From assembly GCA_010356995.1 (NCBI GenBank), contig ML996699.1, positions 713,697-777,696 of the forward strand: a stretch of DNA of 64,000 nt, in the 5' to 3' direction. The translations under genes were made by a program, and so were the position numbers. Numbering within the stretch: position 1 is the stretch's first letter; the number at the start of each line of letters is the position of its first letter. Origin of the DNA: Trichodelitschia bisporula (Eukaryota). The notes below the pieces were generated by a model, which was not told where the DNA came from, did not search any database, and worked only from the letters and a program-made list of their open reading frames with translations. Positions 29,431 through 44,002 of this stretch are shown piece by piece.

Positions 29431-30781
29431 TCAAAGGCAGAGGACCAACTCACCTTTCTCCGCAACCCCATTCCCAACTTCCTCGCCGCCCTTTCCGACC
29501 TCATGCGGCACCTGCTGCGCCGCCTGGAAAATCTCCGCCCCGGCCCGTCTCTCGCGAGCCGCATGCTCACGGAGCAGCGCCGCAATCTGCGGATCCTGTC
29601 GACCTATCCCTTTCAGCCCCGCCGGCAGGCCGGGCGCCGTGAGCACGGCATAGTTTCTCTCCAGCTCCCTAACACGGGCCCGAAACCCCGCCTCCAACCC
29701 CGCATCATCCCCTCCTTGCCCCTCGGGGGCATACACATCCATCCTAACCTCAGTCTTCCCAGGCTCAAGTGGGTTATACACCGTCATGCTCCACGCCCCG
29801 CTGGGCAGGGCTGCTAGATGTGCGAGGGGGAAGACGTATATTTCGGGGTCAGGGTGCGGGGGCCGGAGAAACGAAATCAAGCGGATGAGGGGTGAAATGG
29901 GTGCCGCGGCCGGTTGAGGAGGGACTAACGGTCAGGTTTATGGAGGTGGAATAGACGGAGGGCGGGGGGGGGGGGGGGGGGGGCTACCGGCTAATTTCCA
30001 GTTGAACGCGCCCTTGGCCTCGAACCGCGCGACGGGCCGGCTGCTTGGGTCTGCGAACGCAGCCGCCCAGGCCGCAAGCTCCGCCTCGCTCCTCCCTTTC
30101 CCACTCTCACCCCTCTCGCCGCCCGAGAAATTAACGCTCACAACGCCATCCAGCACACTCAACCCAACAGGCCACAGCCCCATGCCCTCCTTCCTGAACC
30201 CAGGAAGTGCATCGAAGTGTGGCGCCTTAGTCAGACGGCCACGCGCATCGTAACTCCACCCGTGGTACCGGCAGCCAAGGACGAGGCTTGTGCCGGACTC
30301 CTTGCGAGCAACGGTGTATGCGCGGTGGCGGCAGACGTTGTGGAAGGCACGGATGTTTGCGTCCCGGCCTTTGATCAGTACGATGGGCAGCGAGGAGGGG
30401 GTGAAGGTTGTGTATGAGCCGGGGGAGGGGAAGTGCGAGGTGTGGGTTAGGGGGAGGGAGTGCTGCGGGGGTTAGCTGGGGGTGGGGATGGGAGGTGGGA
30501 CGTGGGGGCGGCAGTACAGTGGTGAAAATCGCGCGCCGCTCCAGCGCAAATTGCCGCGCGCATGTCCACCAGCCTTCCTCCTTGCCCACCCGTGGAACCG
30601 GCTCCTCGGGCCCGGAGAAGGGTCCGGCGGGGCGGGTCTGTGGGGTCGGCCCGGTCGCGACAGCCCCGCCATTGAAGGCTTCGGGCCGGGCTGGGCGACG
30701 GGAGAACAAGGACGCGAGCAGAAGAAGAGCAACGGCGACAACGATGACGGGGAAAGGAAGCATAAGCGCGTCTCGGTCCAT
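29431..30781 (-). CDS. Rieske [2Fe-2S] oxygenase-like protein A (choline/carnitine monooxygenase-like): Rieske ligands intact, mononuclear-Fe motif absent; introns 30463-30517 and 29925-29987
   Basis: The spliced product reads ...WWTCARQFALERRAIFTT|HSLPLTH...RAFHNVCRHRAY...LGCRYHGWSYDARGRLTKAP...FNWKLA|VPPQPAAAPISPL...IYVFP...KTEVRMDVY. N-terminal hydrophobic segment PVIVVAVALLLLASLF. Confidence 0.85.
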
Positions 30782-32908
30782 TGCTGCCACACAACTCCAA
30801 AAATAAAATCCAAAATGGTCTCTAGGGCGGAGACACAACAACGACGGACGAGGTAACCTCACCAGCGGGGCGGCGCATATATCGCAAATGGCATCGCCGC
30901 CTCGGCGGCAGTGCCCGCGGGTCCGCGCATACGCATCCCAAAACACGGATTGCGTTCCTGTGTTCCTGGGTTGGCTTAACCCCGCGGACTGCATTCGTGT
31001 ATTTCCCAACCGGCGGCTGCGAAGCCATTCCCTCTCTGCATATCGAACCCAGGCGCCCGTGTCGGAGTGCGTTTTGCAGGTCGGTTTCGCGGGCTCGAGC
31101 TTCACTTCGACTGCCTGACTTCCCAATGCGGCAAAAGGTTCCGCACCCGCGTTGCTCGGTCCTGCATCTGCCGGCCGGCTGGGCGCGTGTAGCGCGCCGC
31201 CACGAGGGGTTGCTGCGAGGCTGCCAAGAGGATGGCCCTGCCTGCTGGGGTGATTTGCGTGGATGGGAGTGCCCTGCTTGGGCTTGTGTTACAGGAGGTG
31301 GGGATGATAAACTCCCATTGGGATAATGGGATGGGTTTTGGATCTCGCGGTGCGGCGAAGCCCCCCGCTGCTGCCCCACTTTGGGCCGTTTTGCGGAGGA
31401 GATGCGGGCGTGCAGAGGAGATTTGCGGTTGGAATCGGAGTTCGATGGCACGATCAGTGCGGATTTAAATAACGGTGGGCGGGTCTGGAGCGGATATGTT
31501 TGGGGCAGTGACGAATGGACTGCTTGGGGAGGGGAGATGCAGTTCAAGTTCACCCCTCCATCGGCGAGGTTTTGATAAGATCTGATGGCTTGTTGAAGTG
31601 ATTGCCGCCTTTTTCTGTCTTATTGGCCTGGGAAGCGGCAGCGTCTTTATTGGCCCCTCAGGACCGGGTAAGCGCATCCTGCCCAGACCCGAACTCGGGA
31701 CGACGAGTGACAACCACGAACTCTCAATCTACCCTCCGCTCGCTACCTGCAACGCATTGCAGCATCTTACTCGCAACATTGGCTGCATGACCTGTCACGA
31801 TCCAGTAACCTAGACAGCCTCTGCCGCGCAAGCCGGAACCGCCGTCAACCAGACCCTCAAGTCGATAGCCGTGCACCACGACAAGGCGCTCCAAAAGCCT
31901 CAAACCTCAACCCGCAGATGGTTGAGACTCGAGAACATCGTCAAACGCGGCTGAGCACACTTCATGATGTCGCACGAAAACCACGCCTGCCCTATGTCAA
32001 GGAGCTTCTATAGTAGCACAGAGCAAGGAGACCCTTCTCCCCACCACCGACACCGGCCGTAACTTACCCTGAGCAAGAGGTCAAGGGCTACCAAAAACAA
32101 AGTCATGTCCCTACTGGCGACTACACCTCTAACACATTTTGGTGGGGGGGAGAAGGGACTTTTTCGAGTAGCCTTTGAGCCCTGTTCGTCGCTCCGCACC
32201 GTCATCCGGGACTTCCAGAGTCGTTACGGCCCCATCCTGTGCTCGCTGCTCGTTATCATGGTGCCAAGCTGATACCGATATCTACCGATATCTTCCAGTT
32301 CACTCCAGCCAGTCGGATGTTTGCCTGGGCTGGGGAAATGCTGCGTTGCATCAAGGCGCGTGTGATGGTGCACAGGGCTAATCGCGAGTAGGACTGGATG
32401 GTATGCGGTGAGGAATACTGGAAAGGCGGAGATTGGTCTAATCGAAGAAGCATGAAGCAGCCTTATCATGCTGGCTTTCCAGCTTCCGCCGCGAGCAAGA
32501 GGGTTCTCACTTGGGGTGCGAAGATAGGATCCGCGAGCCTTTCCTGAGGAACGAACGCGCGATGATATGCTTATGATCGATCTTTTGCTGTGGTGACGAG
32601 GGCTGTCCCGGTATCGGTCGGCTTGTCATGACGAACAGGGCTCTCCACCGTTATTCCAGGTCACTTGGACCATCGTACCGGCCTATGATGGTAATGGGCA
32701 TGGGCTGTGGCTTCTCCGCTGCAGATAAATCAGGGAGGTCTTTAAAGTTATTCACGTACTGGATTCTTAACTCACTGTTGCATAGGGATATGTTAGATTG
32801 CGTAATGTGATTACATTTATCTCAAGTTTCCTCAAGGTCGGAGGTCGATTCAAGTTCAGACAGTCCATGATTGTGGATTGTGAACTTTATGTCAACACCG
32901 TAAGGGAT

Positions 32909-33095
32909 GAACTCGTGGTCGTATACGCCTGACTCAAGTTCCATTACAGATGCCAAACTCGTGGTCGTATACGCCTGACTCAATCTCCATTACAGATGTC
33001 GAACTCGCGGTAGTCGATGCCTGATTCAAATTCTATACTATATAGAACCAGAAGTCGAACTCGTGGTCATCAACGTCTGGTTCAACTTCAATCCA
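32909..33095. repeat. Tandem repeat, unit about 46 bp, about 4 copies, progressively degenerate
   Basis: AACTCGTGGTCGTATACGCCTGACTCAA... starts at 32910 and 32956; diverged copies at 33002 and 33058. Confidence 0.85.
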
Positions 33096-33120
33096 AGAGG
33101 TCGGGGTCCATGTACTCGTT

Positions 33121-33363
33121 TTACGCAAACGGTACATCCTCTCCATCCAACTTCGGCCCCAAATACTTATTCTGATAAAAGTTCTTGGGATTGCGCTTCG
33201 GGTCAGGCTCCTGCGACGCCTTGTACTCGCAGGGAGGACAGAGATTCTCGGAAGTCCCGCTGACCGTAGTGCGCTTGTGACCTGGCTGCCCTATTGCTTT
33301 ACAGTCGGACGCCTTGATCTTGGTGTGTCCGCACGCGGACTTGGTTTCGATAGTCTTACACAT
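33121..33363 (-). CDS. Small CxH...CxxC protein g1 (80 aa)
   Basis: MCKTIETKSACGH...LCPPC; intronless; same ligand pattern as its neighbours. Confidence 0.65.
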   Translation of the reverse strand: MCKTIETKSACGHTKIKASDCKAIGQPGHKRTTVSGTSENLCPPCEYKASQEPDPKRNPKNFYQNKYLGPKLDGEDVPFA

Positions 33364-34035
33364 ACTGACGGAGGATTTCCTGAATCTGAGATCTCGAACT
33401 TAGAACTGAAGGGAGAATGTTCTTTAAAACTGAAGCGAGAATCTTTGGAACTGGATGGGAGAAGATTCGAAATCAGATCCAGTGGATGTTTGAGCTCGAA
33501 GCTTGGGGTTGGTGGTGGGATGAAAGAGGAGTCTTTCATGGCGTTATATATGTGGATTCTCATCAGCGAATGTGAGTTCAGGAAGAAGATTGTGATCTCT
33601 GTATTTCGATATTCACTAATGCTTCAACGCACTTGGGAACACTTTACTTGCCTATGTGATTTGCGTATATGGTCAGCGAAGTCGGTGAGTGACTACATTT
33701 AGCTAATTGTAACCTTCTCAGTCCAGCCGCACCAAGTGTGATGGCCGGCGGAGGTGGAAGGAGAGGCAGGGTGGTAAATGTGAGATCGAAGGAGACTGAC
33801 GCTTAGCAGTATACACACCATCTTGCCTTCTCTCCATCATGCACTTGCGTTCTGGCGCCATGTAAGTCCTATACGTCTCTCACTCACCATGCAATACCTC
33901 ACTTTCACCCGTAGGAACCTCACTCACGAGTCGCCCAGATGCCTTATAAGCCTCGTACCTTCCCACTAGAAACTCTCTTTTCTCGTCCGTTACTACTTCC
34001 CTCATCTTCGCGCTACATCTTCACGCTGCAGGAAG

Positions 34036-34320
34036 ATGTGTATCGTCAAGAGAGTCAAGTACGCATGCTACCACCCCGAGTGGGAGGCCACCAACCGGCG
34101 CGAGAAGGCCGAGCTGCCGTTTACGCACCCGGATCACGCTGTGCTTTGCGAGGGCGGGATTGAGGAATCTGGGGACAGATGTGCCGTGTGCTTGCGTCAC
34201 CGGGCGATGCTATTGGTGCTTTTGGTCTTGTATGTTTGGTATAGGATGCTTATGGCTGAGTACCGGGAACTTACGTTTTTTGTTTTCAGAATCAACATTT
34301 CGCTTACTTGGTACTTGTAA
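34036..34320 (+). CDS. Small CxH...CxxC protein g2 (94 aa) with a hydrophobic C-terminal segment
   Basis: MCIVKRVKYACYH...RCAVC, then MLLVLLVLYVWY; TATAAG about 90 nt upstream. Confidence 0.65.
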   Translation: MCIVKRVKYACYHPEWEATNRREKAELPFTHPDHAVLCEGGIEESGDRCAVCLRHRAMLLVLLVLYVWYRMLMAEYRELTFFVFRINISLTWYL

Positions 34321-34779
34321 GCTTGTCATCTCCACGGCCATCATCACGCTCATTTGGAACTTTCCTTGGTAAACTCCCCATCTCCACGGTCACCACCTAG
34401 CATAATCAATATAAACAACGATTGAACCGACTATCCACCCTTGACCCCCTTGACTGTAATGTGCCATGTCCTTGAAGTGAAATACTCCCGCTCCCTCAGT
34501 CTACCGGGATAGCCATCCCATGTTCGAACTGGAACTGTCCTGATCTGCAGCACGAAGACGCCTTGCACGGCGGTGTTCCAGCAATTGACCGTGCCCACAG
34601 TGAACGAACCGATGAGGACAGCTATGGTGATTGATGCGAGCCATCCACCTAGACGGGGGTGACGAAGGTAAAAGGAGTCACTGGAAAGGTAGTATAAAGC
34701 CTCGTTTTCGAACTGCACTCCTTCCTCGCCATTAACAAGCACACCAACTAGCCTTTTCAACCCAGTATCACAGTCCAAA

Positions 34780-35232
34780 ATGCCCAATACCAAGATTGGT
34801 ATCACGCGTACCCACTACGCCTGCCACCACAGCACTCTGATCATAACCCCGCCCGACTCCTGGGATTCTATGGCTTTGGGGGACCGGCAGGTTACTAGGC
34901 ACCACGTGTTTAATGACGACAAGTGCCCGGCGTGCAAGGCCGGGGTGGAGGAAGCTTCAAAGCAAGAGACCTTGGATCGCAAGGTCTCGAAACAAAAGGT
35001 CTTCGACCAAAAGTCGGACTACAAGGGTTCGATTCACGGGTCTGCGGACCCCAAGGCTTCAGACCACAAAGATTCGGATGATAAGCCATCGGACCACGAG
35101 CCCTCGGAACATGAGCCCTCGGAACATGAGGCCACGGAACACAAGCCCTCGGACCACGAGCCTTCGGATGAGTGGGTGAATAAGAACTGCGGGACCGAGA
35201 CCAAGAAGAATGATGAATCTCACCCAGAGTGA
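34780..35232 (+). CDS. Small CxH...CxxC protein g3 (150 aa) with SDHEP-type pentapeptide tail; inverted copy of the array unit
   Basis: THYACHH...KCPACKAG; 15-bp repeats; TATAAA at 34693; flanks are reverse-complement homologues of the 37.3-41.4 kb units. Confidence 0.75.
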   Translation: MPNTKIGITRTHYACHHSTLIITPPDSWDSMALGDRQVTRHHVFNDDKCPACKAGVEEASKQETLDRKVSKQKVFDQKSDYKGSIHGSADPKASDHKDSDDKPSDHEPSEHEPSEHEATEHKPSDHEPSDEWVNKNCGTETKKNDESHPE

Positions 35233-36077
35233 TATCCATGCTACGTTAATCAGTCGTGTAATAGCTGCAAGTCTGGAAGCTTAACGGTCAGAGGCCGAGG
35301 GCCGGACGAGGCTGAGATGCAGCATGGATCAAGAGATTAGCCTAGTTCTAGTTTGGATTCAATGAAGGTCCATGAAATTGATCATCCGTGCCGCGTGCTC
35401 GCTGCTCTGCTTCCATAGTGCAGAGTGATGACGTTCTTCCGCATCCCAAAAATATCATCCACCTTAACACACAAATCGGACCGATAAGCCTTCACAAAAC
35501 ACTTTTCAAGCCGGGGACGAAGGTGTGTAGCGAAAGATCACCTTATCAGGCAAAGCCCCACCACAAGGCTGTCATCACATGACAAGCAACCCGCCCCAAT
35601 CGAACCTCGCGCCACAATCCACAGACGGACCACCACGTCAACGGTAACACAAACACCTCACCCCAACAGCTGGAGCCCAACAGCTTGAGCTCCGCCTAAC
35701 GCGTTAACATGGGGCCATACCCGCTATCACCCACGGAATCGGACACCTCCAACACGTGTAGCATCGCGCTCGGAGAGCTCGGGGGAAAGATCTCGACGGG
35801 CACCTCGCGGCGTTCGTATCCCTCCCAGCTATGAACAACCTCCCTTCGCCGCAAGCAACAAAACCGGATATACCGCGATCTAGCCCCTCCTTGCTCATTC
35901 CTATCCCCAGCTCCTGCGGGGCACGCGTTCTCATCACACGCCTCCATCCCCGCGTCAGGTTTTATCGTCCATCACTCAGAGCGGATTCCTTGCCCGCATT
36001 CGGACAAAAGTCCATCCCGCTTCCGGCCCCGCGATCCACCGTCGCGGTCAGACCGCGTCAGCATCGGTGCTTCAGAC

Positions 36078-37289
36078 ATGGCGCTTGAGTTTCTCGCCGC
36101 GCTCGCGAGGTGGGGCGTCGGTGCGGGCGGGTTAAATACTAAGCTCCGTACCGCTGGTGGCCCGGGTGGGACGGGCGGCAAGGCTGAACGCCGTGACGAC
36201 GACTGCACCGCCGACCCCGATAACGACCCAGTTATGGATCTGCCCAAGACGCTTCCTGCGAGTTGGTACCGCAGCGCGCCGCTGTATGCGCTCGAGCGGC
36301 GGGCTGTGTTTCTCAAGGTGCGTGCCCTGCTTCGGGATATGAACGTATGCTGATCCATGGGCAGGCGTGGTACCTCCTCGGCCCTGTGACGCGCTTCCTT
36401 CCCGACGAGCCGGTGCGGTATGAGATTGCGCAGGTGCGGTTGTGCGCTTCGCGCGGGGCAGGCGGGCTGAGGGACGTGAGCGTCGTGGACGAAGACACAG
36501 GCTTGCCGCTCCGCAGCTACATCACATCCTCGGGGCTAGTCTTTAGCACCATCTCGGGCGACGCGCCAAGTTTCGTCGAATTCTTCCCCGATCTCGAGCC
36601 GTTGCTCGCGCGGGTGGACTTCACCAGACTGCCGCACCGGCGGAGTATACGCTACGAGGGGAAGTTCAACTGGAAGACGATGGTGGACGGATACCAGGAG
36701 TGTTTGCACTGCCAATATACGCACCCGTCTTTCAGCGTCAACTACCCGCCGACCTTCTACAGCGTGTCGAACCACTGCAATTTCAGCCAACACATTGCCG
36801 ACCCGGCGAAGCCGGACGATGGGCTGTTTCTGTACTTCTTCCCCAATTGCACACTCAATGTGTACGGCGGTGGGATGAGCAGCTTCCGCGTGTGTCCTAC
36901 GACTGAGCCTGGTGTCACGCGTATGGAATTCGATTACTACCACGTGGCGGACGGGGCGGAGTTTGAGTCGTATTTTGCGTTTGTGAGACAGGTTGCGCAG
37001 GAGGATTTTGAGCTGTGTGAGAAGGCGCAGGCGAATCTGGAGCAGGGGGTTTATGTTGAGGGGGTGTTGAATCCGGATAAGGAGACGGGTGTTGCGTGTG
37101 AGTTGTCTTCTTCTTCCCCGTGGGTGCCAACTGACGTATATAGTCTACCAACAGCAGGTCCTCAAGCTGGTGGTTGCGCAGCACGAGGCGGACAAGCAGC
37201 GCGCGGGCTTGATGAGGGAGGCTGGGCCGATGCCCGTGCGGGACGGGGCGGGGAGGCATGCGCTGTGTGTGCAGAAGGCGACGGCATGA
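36078..37289 (+). CDS. Rieske oxygenase-like protein B: catalytic domain intact, Rieske cluster-binding subdomain missing; introns 36318-36364 and 37098-37143
   Basis: LPASWYRSAPLYALERRAVFLK|AWYLLG..., NWKTMVDGYQECLHCQYTHP (36698-36724), FLYFFPN, QEDFELCEKAQANL, GVLNPDKETGV. No CxH/CxxH pair in the expected interval. Confidence 0.88.
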
Positions 37290-37703
37290 TGCGGGCGCCG
37301 AGGGTGGCGGAAGGTAGGGTAGAGGTAGAGGTTTGATTGGCATGTACCATATCACGAGAAGTGCTTCAACCAATTCAAATTCCGTTCATTCATTGAATCT
37401 AAGCTAGGCTATAATACTATCGCACCCATGCGACATCCGAGCCTGTTCAAGCCCTTGGCCTTGGGCCATGAGCCTCGGGAATGCAGTTCTTACACGGCTC
37501 GTTGACTTAGTACGATGTCACTTTCTTGGTGGACTAAGCGTCAGCCGTCTTTGCCTCGGTTCCGCAGTTCTCACCATTGAGCCTAGCCTGGAGAAGGGTT
37601 GACGAGGAGTCAGAGGGCGTATGATCCGAAGACTTGTGGCCTGGGACTTTGTACTCCCGAAGGCTTATGGATACGAAGCCTCCGGGTCCGAACCCTTATC
37701 ATC

Positions 37704-37904
37704 CTAGGCCTCCTGGTCTGAAGCGATCTGGCCCGTCGTCGCCATGCGCTTCAGGAGCTCCGCACGGTGCTTACATCCCGGACACATGTCGTCCCTAAAC
37801 ACGACCTGTGAGAAAGCCTCGTCTGCTTGAAGACTAGGATTTGCGGTGTCAGTAACGGTTGCGACTTGGTGGTTGCAAATGAAGATGATACGCGTGAGAA
37901 CCAT
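37704..37904 (-). CDS. Small CxH...CxxC protein g4 (66 aa), truncated by a premature TAG; decayed tail continues to about 37535
   Basis: MVLTRIIFICNH...DDMCPGCK; the relic SSTLL...ENCGTEAK downstream of the stop matches the g6 C-terminus. Confidence 0.65.
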   Translation of the reverse strand: MVLTRIIFICNHQVATVTDTANPSLQADEAFSQVVFRDDMCPGCKHRAELLKRMATTGQIASDQEA

Positions 37905-38381
37905 TTCGGGTGGCTAGTTTGGGTTGGGGTGCTAGGTTGAGAAGGGGATGACTGATGGAGGTGGTTAGGGACAGAGAGGAGGGATCACGGCTCAAGCGGA
38001 GCTTTTATACTACCTTTCCAGTCACATCTCACCTCAGTCACCCTTCGTCTAGGTGGCTCGCTTGCATCAGTCACCATACCTCCATTCCCGGTTCATCCTG
38101 TGGGTACGGTCACTCGCCGTGACACGGCTAGAGCGGAGTGTCTTCCCTATCATGAGAGTACTTGATCAAGCAATCCGGACTTTGTCCTTTCATTAAATCT
38201 AAGCTAGGCTACTACTATCCGACCTATATAGCATCTTAGCCTCGTGCGGCCTTGGGTCTGAGGCCGTTGAGCCTTCGGACGTGTAGTTCTTTTACAGCTC
38301 ACTGATATAGCGCGGGCATCACTCTCTCGACGAGAACTGAGCTTTGTTGTCCTTCATCTCGGTCCCGCGGTTTGAGTCCAC

Positions 38382-38645
38382 CTACTGGTCCGTAGGCTTA
38401 CGATCCGAGGGCTTGTCATCCGATAGCTTGAGTTCCGAAAGCATATGGTCCAGGGACTTATGATCCGAGCTCTCCTGATTCGAGGACTCATTCGTACCGG
38501 CCTTACAGTGGCGACATTTTTGCTCGGCGAAAATGTGCTGTGCACGCGTCCGCAGGTCCTCATGAGTAATTGAGCCTAGGCGATTGGGCAGGATTATGAT
38601 TATGGCGTCGTGGGGGCAGCTGACGTGGATTTGCAAGATAGGCAT
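38382..38645 (-). CDS. Small CxH...CxxC protein g5 (87 aa)
   Basis: MPILQIHVSCPH...KCRHCKAG; the TAG stop aligns with Trp (TGG) of g3 (PTDQ*VDSNRGTE vs PSDEWVNKNCGTE). Confidence 0.7.
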   Translation of the reverse strand: MPILQIHVSCPHDAIIIILPNRLGSITHEDLRTRAQHIFAEQKCRHCKAGTNESSNQESSDHKSLDHMLSELKLSDDKPSDRKPTDQ

Positions 38646-39057
38646 TTTGGGTAAAGGGAAATCGGGTGATACTTGGGTTGGCTGGTAAGTGGGCTTTTAT
38701 ACTACCTTTCTAGTCACTCGTCACCTCTATCACCTCCGTCTGGGTAACTGGCTGGTAGCAATCACTATACCTGCCGTTCCCGGGTTTACACGCGCTCGGC
38801 ATGGTGTCTCGTCATGATACTGCCCAGACAAATTATTTTACCATATACCGAGAAGTACTTCGCTTAATAAATCAATCAATTCAGATTCATTCATTCATTC
38901 ATTCATTCATTTATTCATTGAATTTAATCTAGACTACATTACTATCCGGCCCATACTACCATCTCAGCCTTGTCTGGCCTCGGGTCTTAGGCTATTGAGC
39001 TTCGGACTTGCAGCTTCTTAGACAGCTTAAAGTACAACCATCAGACTCTTGGTGATA

Positions 39058-39489
39058 CTAAGCACCGCTCTTCTCCGTTTCCGTTCCGCAGTCCTCATCC
39101 TTAAACTCAGTCCATAGAAGGGTTGACGAGGGTTCAGAGGGCTCGTGGTCTGAAGCCTCATGCTCCGATGACTTGTGGTCCGAAGCCTCGTGGTCCGATG
39201 ATTTGTAGTTCGAACCCTCATGCTCCGATGGCTCGTGGTCCGAACCCTCGTGCTCCGAAGCCTTACCCTCCGGAGCCTTATCATCCTCGGCCTGGTAGCC
39301 TGAAACATTGCGCCTATACTCCACAGCTACGCGGTTCAAGAGCTCATGGAGCTTGCACATGGGACAGATGTCTTCGCTGTACACGACCTCCGTAAAATGT
39401 GACTCGTCCCTAAGCAACCTAGGATCCTGACCGCTATCCATGCTTACGATCATGTGCTGGCAGCCGTAGAAGGTGCGATTGATGTCCAT
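39058..39489 (-). CDS. Small CxH...CxxC protein g6 (143 aa) with SDHE/SEHE pentapeptide tail
   Basis: MDINRTFYGCQH...EDICPMCK; tail SEHEGSDHEPSEHEG...DCGTETEK. Confidence 0.75.
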   Translation of the reverse strand: MDINRTFYGCQHMIVSMDSGQDPRLLRDESHFTEVVYSEDICPMCKLHELLNRVAVEYRRNVSGYQAEDDKAPEGKASEHEGSDHEPSEHEGSNYKSSDHEASDHKSSEHEASDHEPSEPSSTLLWTEFKDEDCGTETEKSGA

Positions 39490-39886
39490 TTTGGGCGATA
39501 GATATTTGGGTTGTGATGCTGAGTAAGGAAGGGGATGGTGGAGAGGAAGGATTGTGGGGGGAGAAGGAGGCTTTTATACTGCCTCTCCAGTCACTCCTCG
39601 CTTCTTGTCAACCTCCGCCTGGGTGATTGGCGGGCATCAGTCACCATACCTGCCATTTTACCATATCACGAGAAGTGCTTCAATCAAACAGTTCAGACTT
39701 CTTTCATTCATTAAATCTGAGCTTCGCTACCAGACTGCTATCTGACCCATGCAGCATCTCAGCCACGTGCGGCCTTGGGTCTAAGCCTTCGGACTTGCAG
39801 TTCTTACATAGTTTATTGACATAGTACAAATCTCACTCCGGCGAGACTAAACATTGCTCTTCTTCGGCTCGGGCGGCAGTTCGCAT

Positions 39887-40132
39887 TTACCTACTTTCCG
39901 AGGGCTTGTCGTCGGAGAGTTTGAGTTCCGAGAACATTTGGTCTAAGGATTCATGACCGGATGTCTCTTGGCCTGAGTTTTCCATTGTACTGGTCGTACA
40001 CGCGTGACAGCTGTCGTCGACAATTATGTGCTCTATGTGCGTCCGTGGGTCCCTAATAGAACCTGGGGAATCGGGCGGACCTATGATCGTGAGGCTGTGG
40101 GAGCAGGTGTAGTGGAATTGCAAGATAGCCAT
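39887..40132 (-). CDS. Small CxH...CxxC protein g7 (81 aa)
   Basis: MAILQFHYTCSH...DSCHAC; shares SLD.M.SELKLSDDKPS with g5. Confidence 0.7.
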   Translation of the reverse strand: MAILQFHYTCSHSLTIIGPPDSPGSIRDPRTHIEHIIVDDSCHACTTSTMENSGQETSGHESLDQMFSELKLSDDKPSESR

Positions 40133-40485
40133 TTCGGGTAAGGGGGAATTGGGTGATACTAGGCCGGCTGGTAAGTGTGTCTGATGAGAGAGAGGAAGGC
40201 GGGTGGAGAACGAGGCTTTTATACTACATTTCTCGTCACTCCTTGCCCCTAGTCACCTCCCTCTTGGTCACCTCAATCTAGGTAACTACTCGTATCAGTC
40301 ACCTCGCCCAGGGACGTCACCAATCACTTCAACTTTCATTCATTCATTGAATCTAAGCTAGGCTACACTACTCTCCGACCATCTGGAATCTCAGCCCCAT
40401 CCGGCCTGGGCAGTCGACCGTCAGCTTTTGAGATTTGCAGTTGGTACTGGTTCATCGACGTAGTACGGATGTTACTCGAGTGAGA

Positions 40486-41096
40486 CTAAACCTCGCTCTT
40501 CTTCGTCTCGTGTCCGTTATTCGCATGCAAAAGCTCCCAATCCGCATCCATCGAGTGGTCCGTGGGCTTGTCGTCCGAGGACTTTTCATCCGAGGGTTTG
40601 CCGTCTGAGGCCTCGTCGTCCGAGGACTCGTCGCACACGCAGTGGTGGTGGCGACACTCGCACGAGCACTGGGACCCGCACTCGTCGTCCTCGGTCTTCG
40701 CGTCCTTACTGTACGGACAGTTGGTGTCGATGTGACGCACGTTCGAGATATCCGGCCTAGACCCATTATAGATGAGCTCCTGATCGTCACCAGCGGTGAT
40801 CTTGATGTGGTAACAGTCCTATTTGGTGAGCGTGAGACCCGGTGGCGAGTCTGATGACGTCTTGAAGTCGTCAACTCAGGGCTTGGAGGGTGTGTGGACC
40901 GAGGTCAGGCGCTCCAGATGTCGTGAACCCAGGCATTTTCATGATAAAAGCCCATGCGATGACACTCCGGACACACGTTGCCGATGTTTTCCACCCTAGT
41001 GAAAACCGGCCCTTTCCCGGAATAAACGGGATCAACGCGGTGGCCGGCGTACATCGCGATGTGACCGCAGAGGTAATTCGTGTATGTGAGGCCCAT
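40486..41096 (-). pseudogene. g8: CxH...CxxC gene with an internally duplicated, disrupted second domain and a Cys/His-rich plus acidic tail
   Basis: ORF 40905..41096 MGLTYTNYLCGH...VCPEC; downstream GLTLTK*DCYHIKITAG...NCPYS, then CGSQCSCECRHHHCVC and SDDKP repeats ending NGHETKKSEV. Confidence 0.65.
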
Positions 41097-41724
41097 TTTA
41101 AGTAAAGGGATTTGGATTATGAGGTTGAGTTTGGAAAAAGATGGCTGGTGGAAGAGGATGGCGATGGAGAGGAAGGAGTGTAGCTCGAAAACGAGGCTTT
41201 ATGATACCTCTTCTGTGGCGCCTCACGTTTTGTCACCTCCATCGTGATCACCCCCGTCTCCATCTCCATCACCTCCATCTAGGTGGCTAACTCGGTTCTG
41301 TCACCATACTTGTCGCCGGCAGTTCTAACGCTGTTAACACGGTGCTTCGTCGTGATACCGCCCGGATAAAGTGACTTACCATTTCACGAGAAGTGAATTC
41401 AAGGGATCCAGCCTCCACACATACTCGTAGACATCGAAGACATCGAAGACATCGAAGCATGCACGTAAGGCAGGAGCACTGCTCTGCAGGAGGGAACATG
41501 ATGTAATATGCGCACATTGGGGGAAGGAGCATGCAAGTATACTTGACACCACTGTGTACTTCTTCTCGAGCGTCTTTTGACTCGCTTTTTCTTCTTGTCT
41601 TCCATTGACTCTTCACTTCACTGTAGCCATCTGCACGTGCTAAGCCTATGCTTCCGTTAAGGAAGACATCTCGGACTCAGAATGAACACCGGTGCAAGCC
41701 AAAACGGGTATCAAATTAAGCCGC

Positions 41725-44002
41725 CTACTTGCGTCCCAACATCGTATTCCCACTCGCACTCCTTCTCTCCTTCTTCCGCCACTCACTCTTATCACTCTTA
41801 TCCCTCTCTCCACCCTCATCCCTCCGCGGAGGCTTCTTCCTTCCCTGCGGCATAAACGACACCTCCCTCTCCCCAACCACGCCGCGCTTAACCACCCCCG
41901 CCGACTTATCCTTCAACTTGCCAACCCGGTCACCAAATGCCTTCTCCATCTTTGGCTTGCTCTTCCCTGCGCTCGAAACCACCATCCTCGGGCCCTCCTC
42001 AGCCCGAGCCTTAGCAGCACTCTTCTTCCGATCCGCGATCTGCGTCTTCCGCCTGTACCCACCGCCCTCACTCTCCTCACTCTCACTCCCACTCGAGTCC
42101 TCATTCCCGCGCCGCGCCTCCTCGAGCTCCGCCTCCTCAACGGCAGTAAGGCCCTTCGGCAACCGCCGCGGCTCATCTCGGACCAACGTGCTAGGATTGA
42201 GACTGCGGAACTCAGCACTGCGCTCATTGATCTCAAACGCCTCGTCCTGGAACAGGCGGGCAAAGCGGTCGTCAGTAAGGATATCCGGGCGTCTGGAGTC
42301 GACGGCGTCGCCGCCAACCTCCTCCTCCTCCTCTGCCTCGGACACTTCCTTGGGCTCTGCCGGCTCATCGCCACCTTGCTTGAGGACGCGACGCGCACGA
42401 CGCGCCTCGTTCTTGGCCTCGCGCTCGAGCACGCGCTCCGCCAACCGGCGGTTAACCTTGACAGCAACCTTCTTCGCGCCACGGATGCGAGACTCGCGCT
42501 CCTTGTCGATGCGGGCCTTGATACTCTTCGCGCGCTGGTCGGCCCAGAGGGTAGGATTGGACAGCAGGGCAGCTTCTTCGTAGAGCTTCTGCGCGACGAA
42601 GAAGCCGTGCATGTAGGGGCGGAGGAGCGCGGTTTGGCCCACAAGGTGGTCGATGTTGAGCACGCGCAGCTGGGCGGGGGTCAGGAACTTGAAGTTGTCG
42701 TAGACGGCGCCAGTTTGCTGCGTGGTGCTGAAGGCGGATGGGTCGGTGGGGTCCTCGGCGAGTTCTTCGACGAGGTTGTCGAGGAAGGCGCACCATTTCG
42801 GGGCTGGGCCGAGCTGGGGGATGAAGAATGCGTGCTGTTGCTTGCCTTCGTTGGCTGTCAGTAGCATGCCGCTGTCGGAGCACCATTCGACGTGGTTTAG
42901 GTCGACGGCTGGCTCGACGGCGGTCCATGGGTCGCCGGTCGTCGGGTCCCAGAGCTTGATGATGCGCTTGTCTGCGGAGAGGATTTTGGGGTCAGTGGTC
43001 TGGGCGCGAGTGCGCGAGGAGGACTCTAGGAACTTGAGCGTCTGGATGGGGTATCCATAGCCTTGGTCTTTTTTTAGCAGTGGAACGGGCGAGCGGAGGT
43101 CGTAGAGGTGGATGAGTCCAGTAGAGGAACCGGTGGCGAGAGTTAGCCCGTCACGGCGGAAAGAGAGGGCGGTGACTTCAGTGGCGGCATTCATGCTGTC
43201 GGGTGTAGGGTCACGGGGAAGTGAGAGGATGCCGATCCGGCTGCGCGAGCGCGGGTCGAAGAATTCGACTGTGCCGAGCGACGTGCCGAACGCAAGCAGG
43301 TTGTGGCTCTCCTCCGCTACGGCAGCCGTGTTAACGGCACCGACGCTGAGACTGCCTTGTAGGGTTCCTGAGTTGAGGGCGTCTGGATCGTCGCCACCGA
43401 CGTCGACTTCATAGCCCTTCATGAAACGCCCCAGTTCCAGGTTTAACCGAAACACTTCGCCATTTCCCTCCGCGTTGAGACCCACGGACGGTACCAGGGC
43501 CTCAGCGGATCGCCGGTCGTAGACCAGGTCGCGGCCATACCGCGGGATTCGTGTCTTGTAGTGGCATCCACCGGGGCTTTGGAACTCAAGGTAGCGGTCA
43601 GTCTGGAGATGGAGAGATTTGGAGTAGTCGGAAGAGAGGAGGATGAAGGTTTGGTTGAGAGTGTCGGTGTGGCGGGCGAAGGAGAGGGCGAGGTGGGGTA
43701 GGTAGTGCGTGTGTATTTGCGGCTTGTATGTGCCTGCGTCGTGTCAGTTCTTCGTCCTGGACTTCCGTCGTGCAGCTTAACACACCTGTACTCATCACCC
43801 AGTTTCCATCTTCGCTGACCCGCACGCACGAACTGGACTCTTCAAACTCAAAGTCCTGCAACAGTTCTATGCGGTTCGCAAACTCGGGGTCTTGCTTCAG
43901 ACTGCGTTTTCGTTTGCGGATGAGCCAGTCTGGGAGAGGCCGTGCGGTCGATGACCCGGCTATAGTATAGACCGGAACTGCAGAGTGTGTGGAGAGCTTC
44001 AT
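41725..44002 (-). CDS. ENP2: Ribosome biogenesis WD40 protein Enp2/NOL10; intron 43734-43785
   Basis: LPDWL.RKRKRSLK.D....RIELLQDFEF, STG|TYKPQIH, FFIPQLGPAPKWCAFLDNLVEEL, YDNFKFLT, LRPYMHGFF, NUC153-like DDRFARLF. Confidence 0.95.

Follow-up and report, generated by a model that had tools for sequence, protein, structure and literature searches.

The 64,000-nucleotide (nt) stretch of contig ML996699.1 of Trichodelitschia bisporula considered here (assembly GCA_010356995.1, positions 713,697 to 777,696 of the forward strand; hereafter the window) carries a tandem array of short genes whose products share four cysteine and histidine positions and little else. The original prediction, made from the sequence of the window alone, had described eight such genes (g1 to g8) as tiny, intronless and hypervariable, set between conserved promoters and terminators, multiplied by tandem duplication and diversified by selection. 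What it observed is confirmed here, and its interpretation is partly supported. A six-frame regular-expression scan of the whole window, in which each open reading frame (ORF) was counted from the first ATG after a stop, finds the pattern M-x(5-16)-C-x-H-x(20-42)-C-x2-C in the eight predicted ORFs, all at 33121-41096, and nowhere else, against a chance expectation of 0.08 (mean of 50 block shuffles of the window, maximum 1). The residues between these putative metal ligands are as variable as had been claimed: only the C, H, C and C columns are invariant across g1 to g8, and amino-acid (aa) identity among g3 to g8 is 15-46%.

Layout of the array and its non-coding cassettes

Six of the genes, g3 to g8, belong to paralogous units (U3 to U8, ~0.65-1.1 kb each) that can be aligned over their full length by repeat finding and MAFFT (Table 1). 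On the minus strand, from 41393 down to 37345, units U8, U7, U6, U5 and U4 are arranged head to tail, in agreement with the predicted tandem duplication, and U3 forms inverted repeats with them on the plus strand. Repeat spacings of 1487-1524 nt between units, together with the grouping of U5 with U7 and of U4 with U6, suggest that a two-unit block was duplicated (U7-U6 giving U5-U4). The array would have grown by duplication of single units, by this block duplication and by one inversion (U3).

The units share non-coding cassettes as well as ORFs. Reading 5' to 3', a unit consists of an upstream block (CTTCTCGTGATATGGTA), GGTATGGTGACTGATGC, an inverted CACC-N8-GGTG motif, a TATA block (GTGACTGGAAAGGTAGTATAAAAGCC), a leader, the ORF and the 3' blocks. 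Fuzzy searches of the window placed all four matches of the upstream block inside the array and all six matches of the CACC..GGTG block at the six unit promoters. The TATA block has seven matches, five of them at unit promoters and two weak look-alikes elsewhere; the TATA box is clear in five units and degenerate in U8 (CATAAAGCC), as the prediction had it. The leader, from TATA box to ATG, measures ~57-107 nt. The 3' region combines CAGACCCAAGGCCGCACGAGGCTGAGATGC-like and TAGCCTAGCTTAGATTCAATGAA-like blocks, the latter with six of six window matches inside the array, and ends in AATGAA(TGAA). Apart from the two TATA look-alikes, the fuzzy searches found no cassette in the other ~55 kb of the window, and the claim that the flanks of g3 to g8 are alignable is upheld. 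A scan of metagenome DNA with the 3' block gave no match; two matches to the TATA block are put down to chance, since only a 20-nt pattern fits (39% and 47% GC). Behind g6 the AATGAA block runs on into an (ATTC)8.8 microsatellite, and directly past the upstream end of U8 lies a (TCGAAGACA)3.7 repeat.

The idea of a family of eight stands for g3 to g8 and fails for the other two, which share only the pattern. With a profile of g3 to g8 searched against 1248 six-frame ORFs, members score 79-90 bits, whereas g1 reaches 3.6 bits (E 4.3) and g2 5.6 bits (E 1, aligned over profile positions 4-48). The four ligands of g1 and g2 stand at a spacing compatible with that of g3 to g8, and both ORFs have a gene-like composition, with a GC content at third codon positions (GC3) of 0.68 in g1, against 0.46 at second positions (GC2), and of 0.69 in g2. 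The fuzzy window searches found neither promoter nor 3' cassettes at either ORF; a TATAAAGCCTCGT core near g2 proved to be an indel-shifted resemblance only and was not recovered at up to 2 mismatches. Because 0.08 matches are expected per 64 kb and both ORFs lie within 1.7 kb of the array, their matches are unlikely to be due to chance, and g1 and g2 are probably old relatives of the family, not established members.

Table 1. Features of the array and its surroundings (window coordinates; promoter cassettes, blocks and repeats are listed with the unit that holds them)
Feature	Position	Strand	Details
g1 ORF	33121-33363	-	80 aa; pattern-only, doubtful member
g2 ORF	34036-34320	+	94 aa; pattern-only member; hydrophobic C-terminus
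U3	34621-35366	+	promoter cassette 34621-34702 (GCTATGGTGATTGATGC); CACC-N8-GGTG 34646-34662; TATA block 34688-34702
U3, coding and 3' part	34780-35232	+	intact g3 coding sequence, 150 aa; 15-nt repeats 35084-35168; 3' blocks 35291-35320, 35344-35366
U4	37345-38080	-	promoter cassette 38000-38080; g4 coding sequence 37704-37904, 66 aa, N-domain only
U4, downstream of coding sequence		-	decayed tail 37533-37703; 3' block 37389-37411; junction block 37345-37361
U5	38189-38855	-	upstream block 38839-38855; promoter cassette 38692-38771; g5 coding sequence 38382-38645, 87 aa
U5, downstream of coding sequence		-	tail remnant 38356-38372; 3' blocks 38231-38260, 38189-38211
U6	38914-39675	-	upstream block 39659-39675; promoter cassette 39569-39650; intact g6 coding sequence 39058-39489, 143 aa
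U6, repeats and 3' part		-	15-nt repeats 39142-39263; 3' blocks 38959-38988, 38914-38936; then (ATTC)n 38885-38919
U7	39707-40308	-	promoter cassette 40214-40308; g7 coding sequence 39887-40132, 81 aa; 3' blocks 39754-39783, 39707-39729
U8 (longest unit)	40343-41393	-	upstream block 41377-41393; promoter cassette ~41196-41310; g8 coding sequence 40905-41096, 63 aa
U8, downstream of coding sequence		-	ATG-less ORF 40489-40818; 15-nt repeats 40558-40633; 3' blocks 40386-40415, 40343-40365
(TCGAAGACA)3.7 repeat	41425-41457		directly past upstream end of U8
Antisense transcript over g1	32500-33582	+	spliced; joints 32899/32950 and, in one run, 33130/33181
46-nt tandem repeat	32910-33103		2.7-4 copies
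Oxygenase-like gene	35637-37359	+	introns 36316-36362, 37098-37143
Oxygenase paralogue	29431-30471	-	Rieske match in the part at 29938-30471

Expression, coding signature and decay of the tail

The prediction presupposed that these ORFs are transcribed, and RNA contigs cover three of them. Two sequencing runs from one sample, X3 and X4, contain GT..AG joints of neighbouring genes (36315/36363 and 37097/37144) that are missing from the DNA run X1, and they are taken as RNA on these grounds; their contigs are unstranded. Contigs extend over g4 (37381-37952 in X3, 37384-38009 in X4), g6 (38943-39689 in X3, 38943-39429 in X4) and g7 (39717-40175 in X3), in every case colinear with the genome and without joints. 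They end ~45-55 nt past the TATA boxes and at the AATGAA blocks, which fits one short unspliced mRNA per unit, with the reservation that unstranded contigs cannot prove ends. The g3 region in X4 and the g8 region in X3 are uncovered (depth 0-0.17), which is uninformative either way. The predicted lack of introns agrees with the contigs over g4, g6 and g7, but a public gene model places an in-frame intron of 60 nt in g2 (34230-34289), which would leave 74 aa if real; no RNA joint is reported there. The leader of g2 is spliced (joints 33683/33809 and 33861/33939). Contigs across g1 bear plus-strand GT..AG joints and are therefore antisense to it. The spliced plus-strand transcript concerned appears to be non-coding and crosses a 46-nt tandem repeat; the plus-strand ORF that overlaps g1 has no coding signature.

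Four public protein models correspond to the array, and three of them are chimeric or mis-spliced and do not fit the contigs. P0001 is identical to g6, P0002 joins g5 to g4, P0003 joins g2 to g3 by taking the g3 promoter as an intron, and P0004 splices the C-x2-C motif out of g8. The introns of P0002 and P0004 and the second intron of P0003 have no supporting joint among the contigs, which drop rare forms. The suspicion that annotation had missed these genes applies to g7 and g1, neither of which is among the database hits of the profile search; it does not apply to g6, which is annotated exactly, and g2 with g3, g5 with g4, and g8 are present in distorted form.

The ORFs bear a coding signature in several respects. 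In all eight, GC3 is 0.63-0.71 and GC2 0.38-0.46 (regional GC is 50-53%, and neighbouring genes reach 0.75-0.77). The N-terminal domains of g3 to g8, described below, contain no in-frame stop in any of the six copies, against 0-4 in the other frames, and their indels are multiples of three. The third and fourth ligands (Cys3 and Cys4) are encoded by both TGT and TGC, so it is the residue that has been kept and not the codon. Neutral evolution was simulated with assumed terminal branch lengths of 0.21-0.30 substitutions per site, drawn from the pairwise distances; in this setting the combination of ATG, open frame and four ligands survives with a probability of 0.01-0.045 per terminal branch and of ~2e-11 in the six copies jointly. 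By this simulation the N-terminal domain is under selection as a protein.

The intact form of the protein, represented by g3 and g6, has three parts: an N-terminal domain of ~48 residues that holds the four ligands (CHCC; hereafter the N-domain), a linker with a pentapeptide-repeat tail, and a conserved end, W..(N/D)CGTE(T)(K/E)K. The tail is built of a 15-nt unit encoding S-[DE]-H-[EK]-x, present in 5.7-8.1 copies with confirmed tandem repeat periods. In g3 and g6 the tails are acidic (net charge -12 and -17), with 8 and 7 histidines and 6-7 S/T-x-x-D/E sites. The intact proteins contain only 4-5 cysteines in 143-150 aa, along with histidine and aromatic residues, and no signal peptide is visible by eye in the 8-13 mostly polar or mixed residues that precede the first cysteine. 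The label "tiny" is accordingly right for g4, g5, g7 and g8 and wrong for g3 and g6; the short ones are truncated. Both the acidic repeat tail and its decay in four of six copies had been overlooked in the original prediction.

In g4, g5, g7 and g8 the N-domain is kept and the tail is broken past it. The g4 tail is interrupted by TAG, TAA and then a frameshift, with a CGTE remnant at 37553-37569. In g5 the ORF ends at a TAG (38382-38384) that stands in place of a TGG (Trp) of g3, and U7 carries the same TAG (~39893-39895), its tail being lost also by a 2-nt shift and a 1-nt deletion. At this conserved tail start g3, g6 and g8 have TGG, and in g5 the frame remains open for 21 codons beyond the TAG, up to the ancestral stop. 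Finally, g8 stops early and is followed by an ATG-less ORF with a degenerate second N-domain, C-Y-H...C-P-Y-S (independent domain E value 0.056), then a Cys-rich stretch, 15-nt repeats and a W..NNGHETKK tail. The short copies are truncated derivatives of the long form, and the tail is no longer under selection in four of the six copies.

In some ascomycetes UAG codons undergo restorative adenosine-to-inosine (A-to-I) editing (PMC11156358, PMC10776026, PMC4817773). Such editing is known from fungal classes other than the present one. We dropped it as an explanation of the TAG of U5 and U7: the local RNA fold places the A in a stem (z -0.65), and the RNA contigs show no A-to-G change.

Divergence, predicted fold and relatives

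The coding sequence has diverged more than the cassettes that surround it. Over the 15 pairs of units, mean nucleotide identity is 0.72 in the promoter cassette, 0.69 in the 3' region, 0.68 in the C-terminal tail, 0.61 in the 5' leader, 0.57 in the linker and repeats and only 0.52 in the N-domain, so that the comparison of coding with flanking divergence comes out as the prediction had anticipated. In whole-unit alignments the N-domain differs more than the rest of the unit in all eight distinct pairs, and the excess is significant in three of them (p 0.003, 0.003 and 0.03) and not in the two youngest (p 0.33 and 0.14). Terminal branches of the N-domain are ~2x those of the flanks. In trees of the flanks the neighbours U5 and U6 fall together, whereas in the coding parts U5 goes with U7 and U4 with U6.

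Ratios of nonsynonymous to synonymous divergence (dN/dS, NG86) run from 0.37 to 1.58 and exceed 1 in seven of 15 pairs, in a comparison that spans only 43-48 codons with dS mostly saturated. For the youngest pair, g5/g7, dN is 0.46, dS 0.32 and dN/dS 1.43. With these ratios, and with a significant N-domain excess in only three of eight pairs, the diversifying selection that had been proposed is not demonstrated; near-neutral drift on a metal-held scaffold beside constrained or homogenised flanks can fit the data equally well. We also considered repeat-induced point mutation (RIP), which leaves TpA/ApT above ~0.89, (CpA+TpG)/(ApC+GpT) below ~1.03 and an excess of transitions. The indices are 0.80 in the array against 0.64 in the window and 1.07 against 1.20, respectively, and transitions and transversions stand at 457:509 in the N-domain (199:139 and 402:258 in the flanks). 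Neither the indices nor the N-domain ratio agrees with RIP as the source of the hypervariability.

The AlphaFold2 model of the g4 N-domain, computed from an alignment of eight rows, has a mean predicted local distance difference test score (pLDDT) of 80.9 and a predicted template modelling score of 0.52. It places strands at residues 2-7, 13-18 and 31-36 and a helix at 42-54, with C10 and H12 in the turn of the first hairpin and C41 and C44 at the start of the helix; across the family the two ligand pairs are 28-31 residues apart. Zinc ribbons and treble clefs combine a ligand pair on a hairpin knuckle with a second pair at a helix N-terminus or second knuckle to form one tetrahedral site. The layout predicted for g4 appears to be that of such a single-metal clasp. 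Foldseek returned no match to this model at E <=0.001. Besides BofC, its weak structural neighbours are mostly the Zn(Cys)4 C-terminal domains of PerR, Zur and Fur (Z 2.0-3.5; PerR 2fe3_A at Z 3.5, root-mean-square deviation 3.4 A over 47 residues); small ribosomal proteins of bacteria make up the other main group. The ESM Atlas, working from its own model, also lists bL31 and Fur below its reporting bar. Its nearest entries, likewise below that bar, are hypothetical proteins of fungi, 66-84 residues long and grouped in clusters (score 0.85, 177 shared features, template-modelling score 0.68-0.69 by query). These matches support a predicted zinc-clasp-like mini-fold, not homology.

Sequence searches found no relatives outside the locus. 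None of the eight ORFs reaches the gathering score of a Pfam-A family (best E 0.019, 15.8 bits against a cut-off of 28.1), the best profile match in the PDB has E 0.54, and no Rfam family reaches its gathering score over 32500-42000. A HMMER profile search of 1.84 billion representative proteins gave six matches at E <=0.001, four of which are the models of this locus; the other two, P0005 and P0006, are repeat proteins that fit part of the profile and lack the motif, and they were rejected. Word-based protein searches returned only g6 itself for g6 (one of five candidates), nothing at E <=0.01 for g2 (one candidate) and no candidate for g1. At 90% clustering each of the four public models is a singleton, and three are named hypothetical proteins of T. 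bisporula, which belongs to the Phaeotrichales in the Dothideomycetes. Literature listings and abstracts contained no account of a family of this sort. As judged by sequence, the family is an orphan with no detectable relative in the protein databases and the window searched, in an order that is sparsely sampled.

We compared the family with several known classes. Metallothioneins are Cys-dense, with clustered C-x-C and C-x2-C motifs and few histidines or aromatics; the intact proteins, with their low cysteine count and their aromatic and histidine residues, do not belong among them. The metallothionein CUP1 of Saccharomyces cerevisiae is encoded by a tandem array of near-identical, Cys-dense copies. 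The present array is similar in its tandem complete transcription units, in encoding a small intracellular Cys-containing candidate metal protein and in a copy number that is likely to vary, but differs in copies of 15-46% identity, in few cysteines and in the truncation of four of the six. The likeness to the Fur family and bL31 lies in a small module of sheet and helix tied together by two ligand pairs ~30-40 residues apart. Unlike in PerR (2fe3_A), Zur (4mtd_D) and Fur (9ire, 2xig), however, the first pair is C-x-H and not C-x2-C, there is no sequence similarity, and the domain forms the extreme N-terminus of a fungal protein that has no DNA-binding domain. Fur-family proteins are marked by a profile match to the Fur C-terminal domain (PF01475), an N-terminal winged-helix domain and two C-x2-C motifs. 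With no Pfam match to PF01475 and a weak structural likeness (Z 2.0-3.5), we do not file the family there. Rieske domains (PF00355) carry C-x-H...C-x2-H, and the likeness is in a first pair, C-x-H, set in a hairpin turn, and in the Rieske-type oxygenase genes that adjoin the array; the differences are in the second pair, C-x2-C at the start of a helix, and in the spacing of 28-31 residues. Membership was rejected, as PF00355 matches none of the eight ORFs and the second motif is C-x2-C in all eight. Conotoxins and comparable families join conserved flanks or leaders to hypervariable mature parts. Like these, and like the clustered secreted effectors of smut fungi (PMC4824034), the array holds tandem, lineage-specific, fast-diverging small proteins in which the functional part is less conserved than the non-coding or leader parts. 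It differs from both in that no signal peptide is visible, the scaffold would be held by one metal site and not by disulfides, and positive selection is not demonstrated.

Interpretation and genomic setting

Taking these results together, we regard the array as a genuine tandem family of protein-coding genes that is transcribed and, as far as the searches reach, restricted to its lineage. We favour, with a probability of roughly one half, the reading that its products are co-regulated intracellular metal-clasp mini-proteins. Each unit would be a transcription unit of its own, with a CACC-N8-GGTG and TATA cassette, an intron-less ORF and an AATGAA(TGAA) 3' block. In the N-domain a single tetrahedral metal clasp, most likely occupied by zinc, would tie a three-stranded sheet to the helix; the second part would be a disordered, strongly acidic pentapeptide tail and the third the short W..C-G-T-E end. 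The family evolves by birth and death, the tail having been lost in four of six copies. In every copy selection keeps the start codon, an uninterrupted frame and all four ligands, and the cassettes are kept as well; the rest of the N-domain would change at about the neutral rate. We propose that the surface is free to drift because activity would need only the metal site and the general fold, as could be the case in metal or stress buffering or in a small adaptor or dimerisation module. In the long forms, the tail rich in histidine and acidic residues would add low-affinity metal binding. Both co-regulation and zinc binding, as the original prediction had them, are plausible on this account.

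A number of points weigh against this reading. One metal site per domain would make a poor buffer, and if the array served dosage or buffering, its coding sequence should be conserved or homogenised like that of CUP1 and not show identities of 15-46%. Being absent from four of six copies, the tail cannot be indispensable for the activity of the short forms. Comparison of the promoters with familiar motifs turned up no metal- or stress-responsive element. Metal binding is something we infer from the model, and a first model, of the g6 N-domain with six rows, had a pLDDT of 56.5 and structure matches of Z <=2.1; all fold matches have Z <=3.8 and Foldseek E >=0.45, a Z range that reflects a common arrangement. 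Transcript support comes from unstranded contigs of one sample, and translation is predicted. Finally, the dN/dS ratios above 1 in seven of 15 pairs leave room for a family engaged in conflict.

Such a family, serving in allorecognition, antiviral defence or as toxin and antidote, would consist of a metal-held scaffold with a surface under diversifying selection, and the cassettes would keep its copies under one regulatory programme. The N-domain is the most diverged part in all 15 pairs when compared with the promoter and 3' blocks and in all eight when compared with the rest of the unit; its terminal branches are about twice those of the flanks, its excess is not RIP-like, dN/dS reaches 1.43 for g5/g7, and the birth and death of copies and the lack of detectable relatives also count in its favour. 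On the other hand, the excess is not significant in the two youngest pairs, dS is saturated over few codons, and the flanks may themselves be constrained or homogenised between adjacent units, as the grouping of U5 with U6 in the flank trees suggests. The genes around the array, moreover, are ordinary housekeeping ones, including those for NOL10, Med13, an SNF2 helicase and a vigilin-like KH protein. We regard such a conflict family as unlikely, though worth keeping in view. Somewhat more speculative, with a lower probability still, is a new type of intracellular recognition or conflict system, in which a clasped scaffold is copied as cassettes with constant regulation and a diversifying surface. 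The family may also be one branch of a large class of fungal hypothetical proteins of 66-84 residues, undetectable by sequence, with the same fold, to which the Atlas gives a lead. In a conflict system the truncated and the long tailed forms may divide the work between them, say as decoy and sensor or as antidote and effector.

It is improbable that the copies are functionless relics, decaying duplicates of a young orphan gene whose transcription is promoter noise. Stops and frameshifts after the N-domain in four of six copies, dN/dS near 1 and the failure to find homologues would suit decay; yet ATG, open frame and four ligands persist in six of six copies at a joint neutral probability of ~2e-11, N-domain gaps come in threes, GC3 is gene-like in every copy, and the conservation of the promoter and 3' blocks points to purifying selection on expression. 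Very improbable, in our view, is the reading that the oxygenase-like gene lying between U3 and U4 has the mini-proteins as its metallo-cluster or redox partners. That gene belongs with the ring-hydroxylating oxygenases but has no detectable Rieske domain, the array is transcribed toward it from both sides, and C-x-H...C-x2-C recalls the C-x-H...C-x2-H of Rieske proteins. Adjacency is nevertheless the sole link: the Pfam Rieske model matches none of the eight ORFs, the second pair is C-x2-C and caps a predicted helix, and the spacing is 28-31. Hardly credible at all is the notion of transposon or satellite fragments, or of RNA genes with incidental ORFs. Head-to-tail repeats with conserved non-coding blocks could be so explained, but the original prediction's worry that the units might be pieces of a transposon is relieved by the absence of Pfam matches in the eight ORFs and of Rfam matches over the region, and by cassettes confined to the array within the window; the coding evidence (GC3, stops and the neutral simulation) also speaks against it. 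A transposable element was likewise rejected as a class, the ORFs having no Pfam domain, the head-to-tail units no terminal inverted repeats and the cassettes no counterpart in the other ~55 kb of the window.

If the proteins are made, the array would represent a new family of minimal metal-clasp proteins, confined so far to one species, a compact natural experiment on the minimum of sequence required by a metal-held fold, and a clean case of birth-and-death evolution in a core-genome region of a fungus. Its signature is unusual in that coding sequence is less conserved than the regulatory cassettes and nothing but the four ligand positions is invariant. A wider fold class, so far unrecognised, is suggested by the weak links in the Atlas to several clusters of small hypothetical proteins from fungi. 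The array also illustrates how automatic annotation can mishandle such loci, with three of four public models fusing units or splicing out the C-x2-C motif.

The embedded oxygenase-like gene matches the Ring_hydroxyl_A catalytic domain (E 6e-23), contains two introns and has the highest contig depth of the region. The ORF covering its N-terminal part gives no Rieske match, and neither C-x-H nor C-x2-H is visible there. In a distant paralogue 6 kb upstream the Rieske domain is normal (E 2e-15). The 3' ends of the embedded gene and of g4 converge: oxygenase contigs end at ~37346-37359 and g4 contigs begin at 37381-37384, ~20-40 nt apart. At these ends lies a block of 17 nt (37345-37361), of which 39659-39675 is an exact copy.

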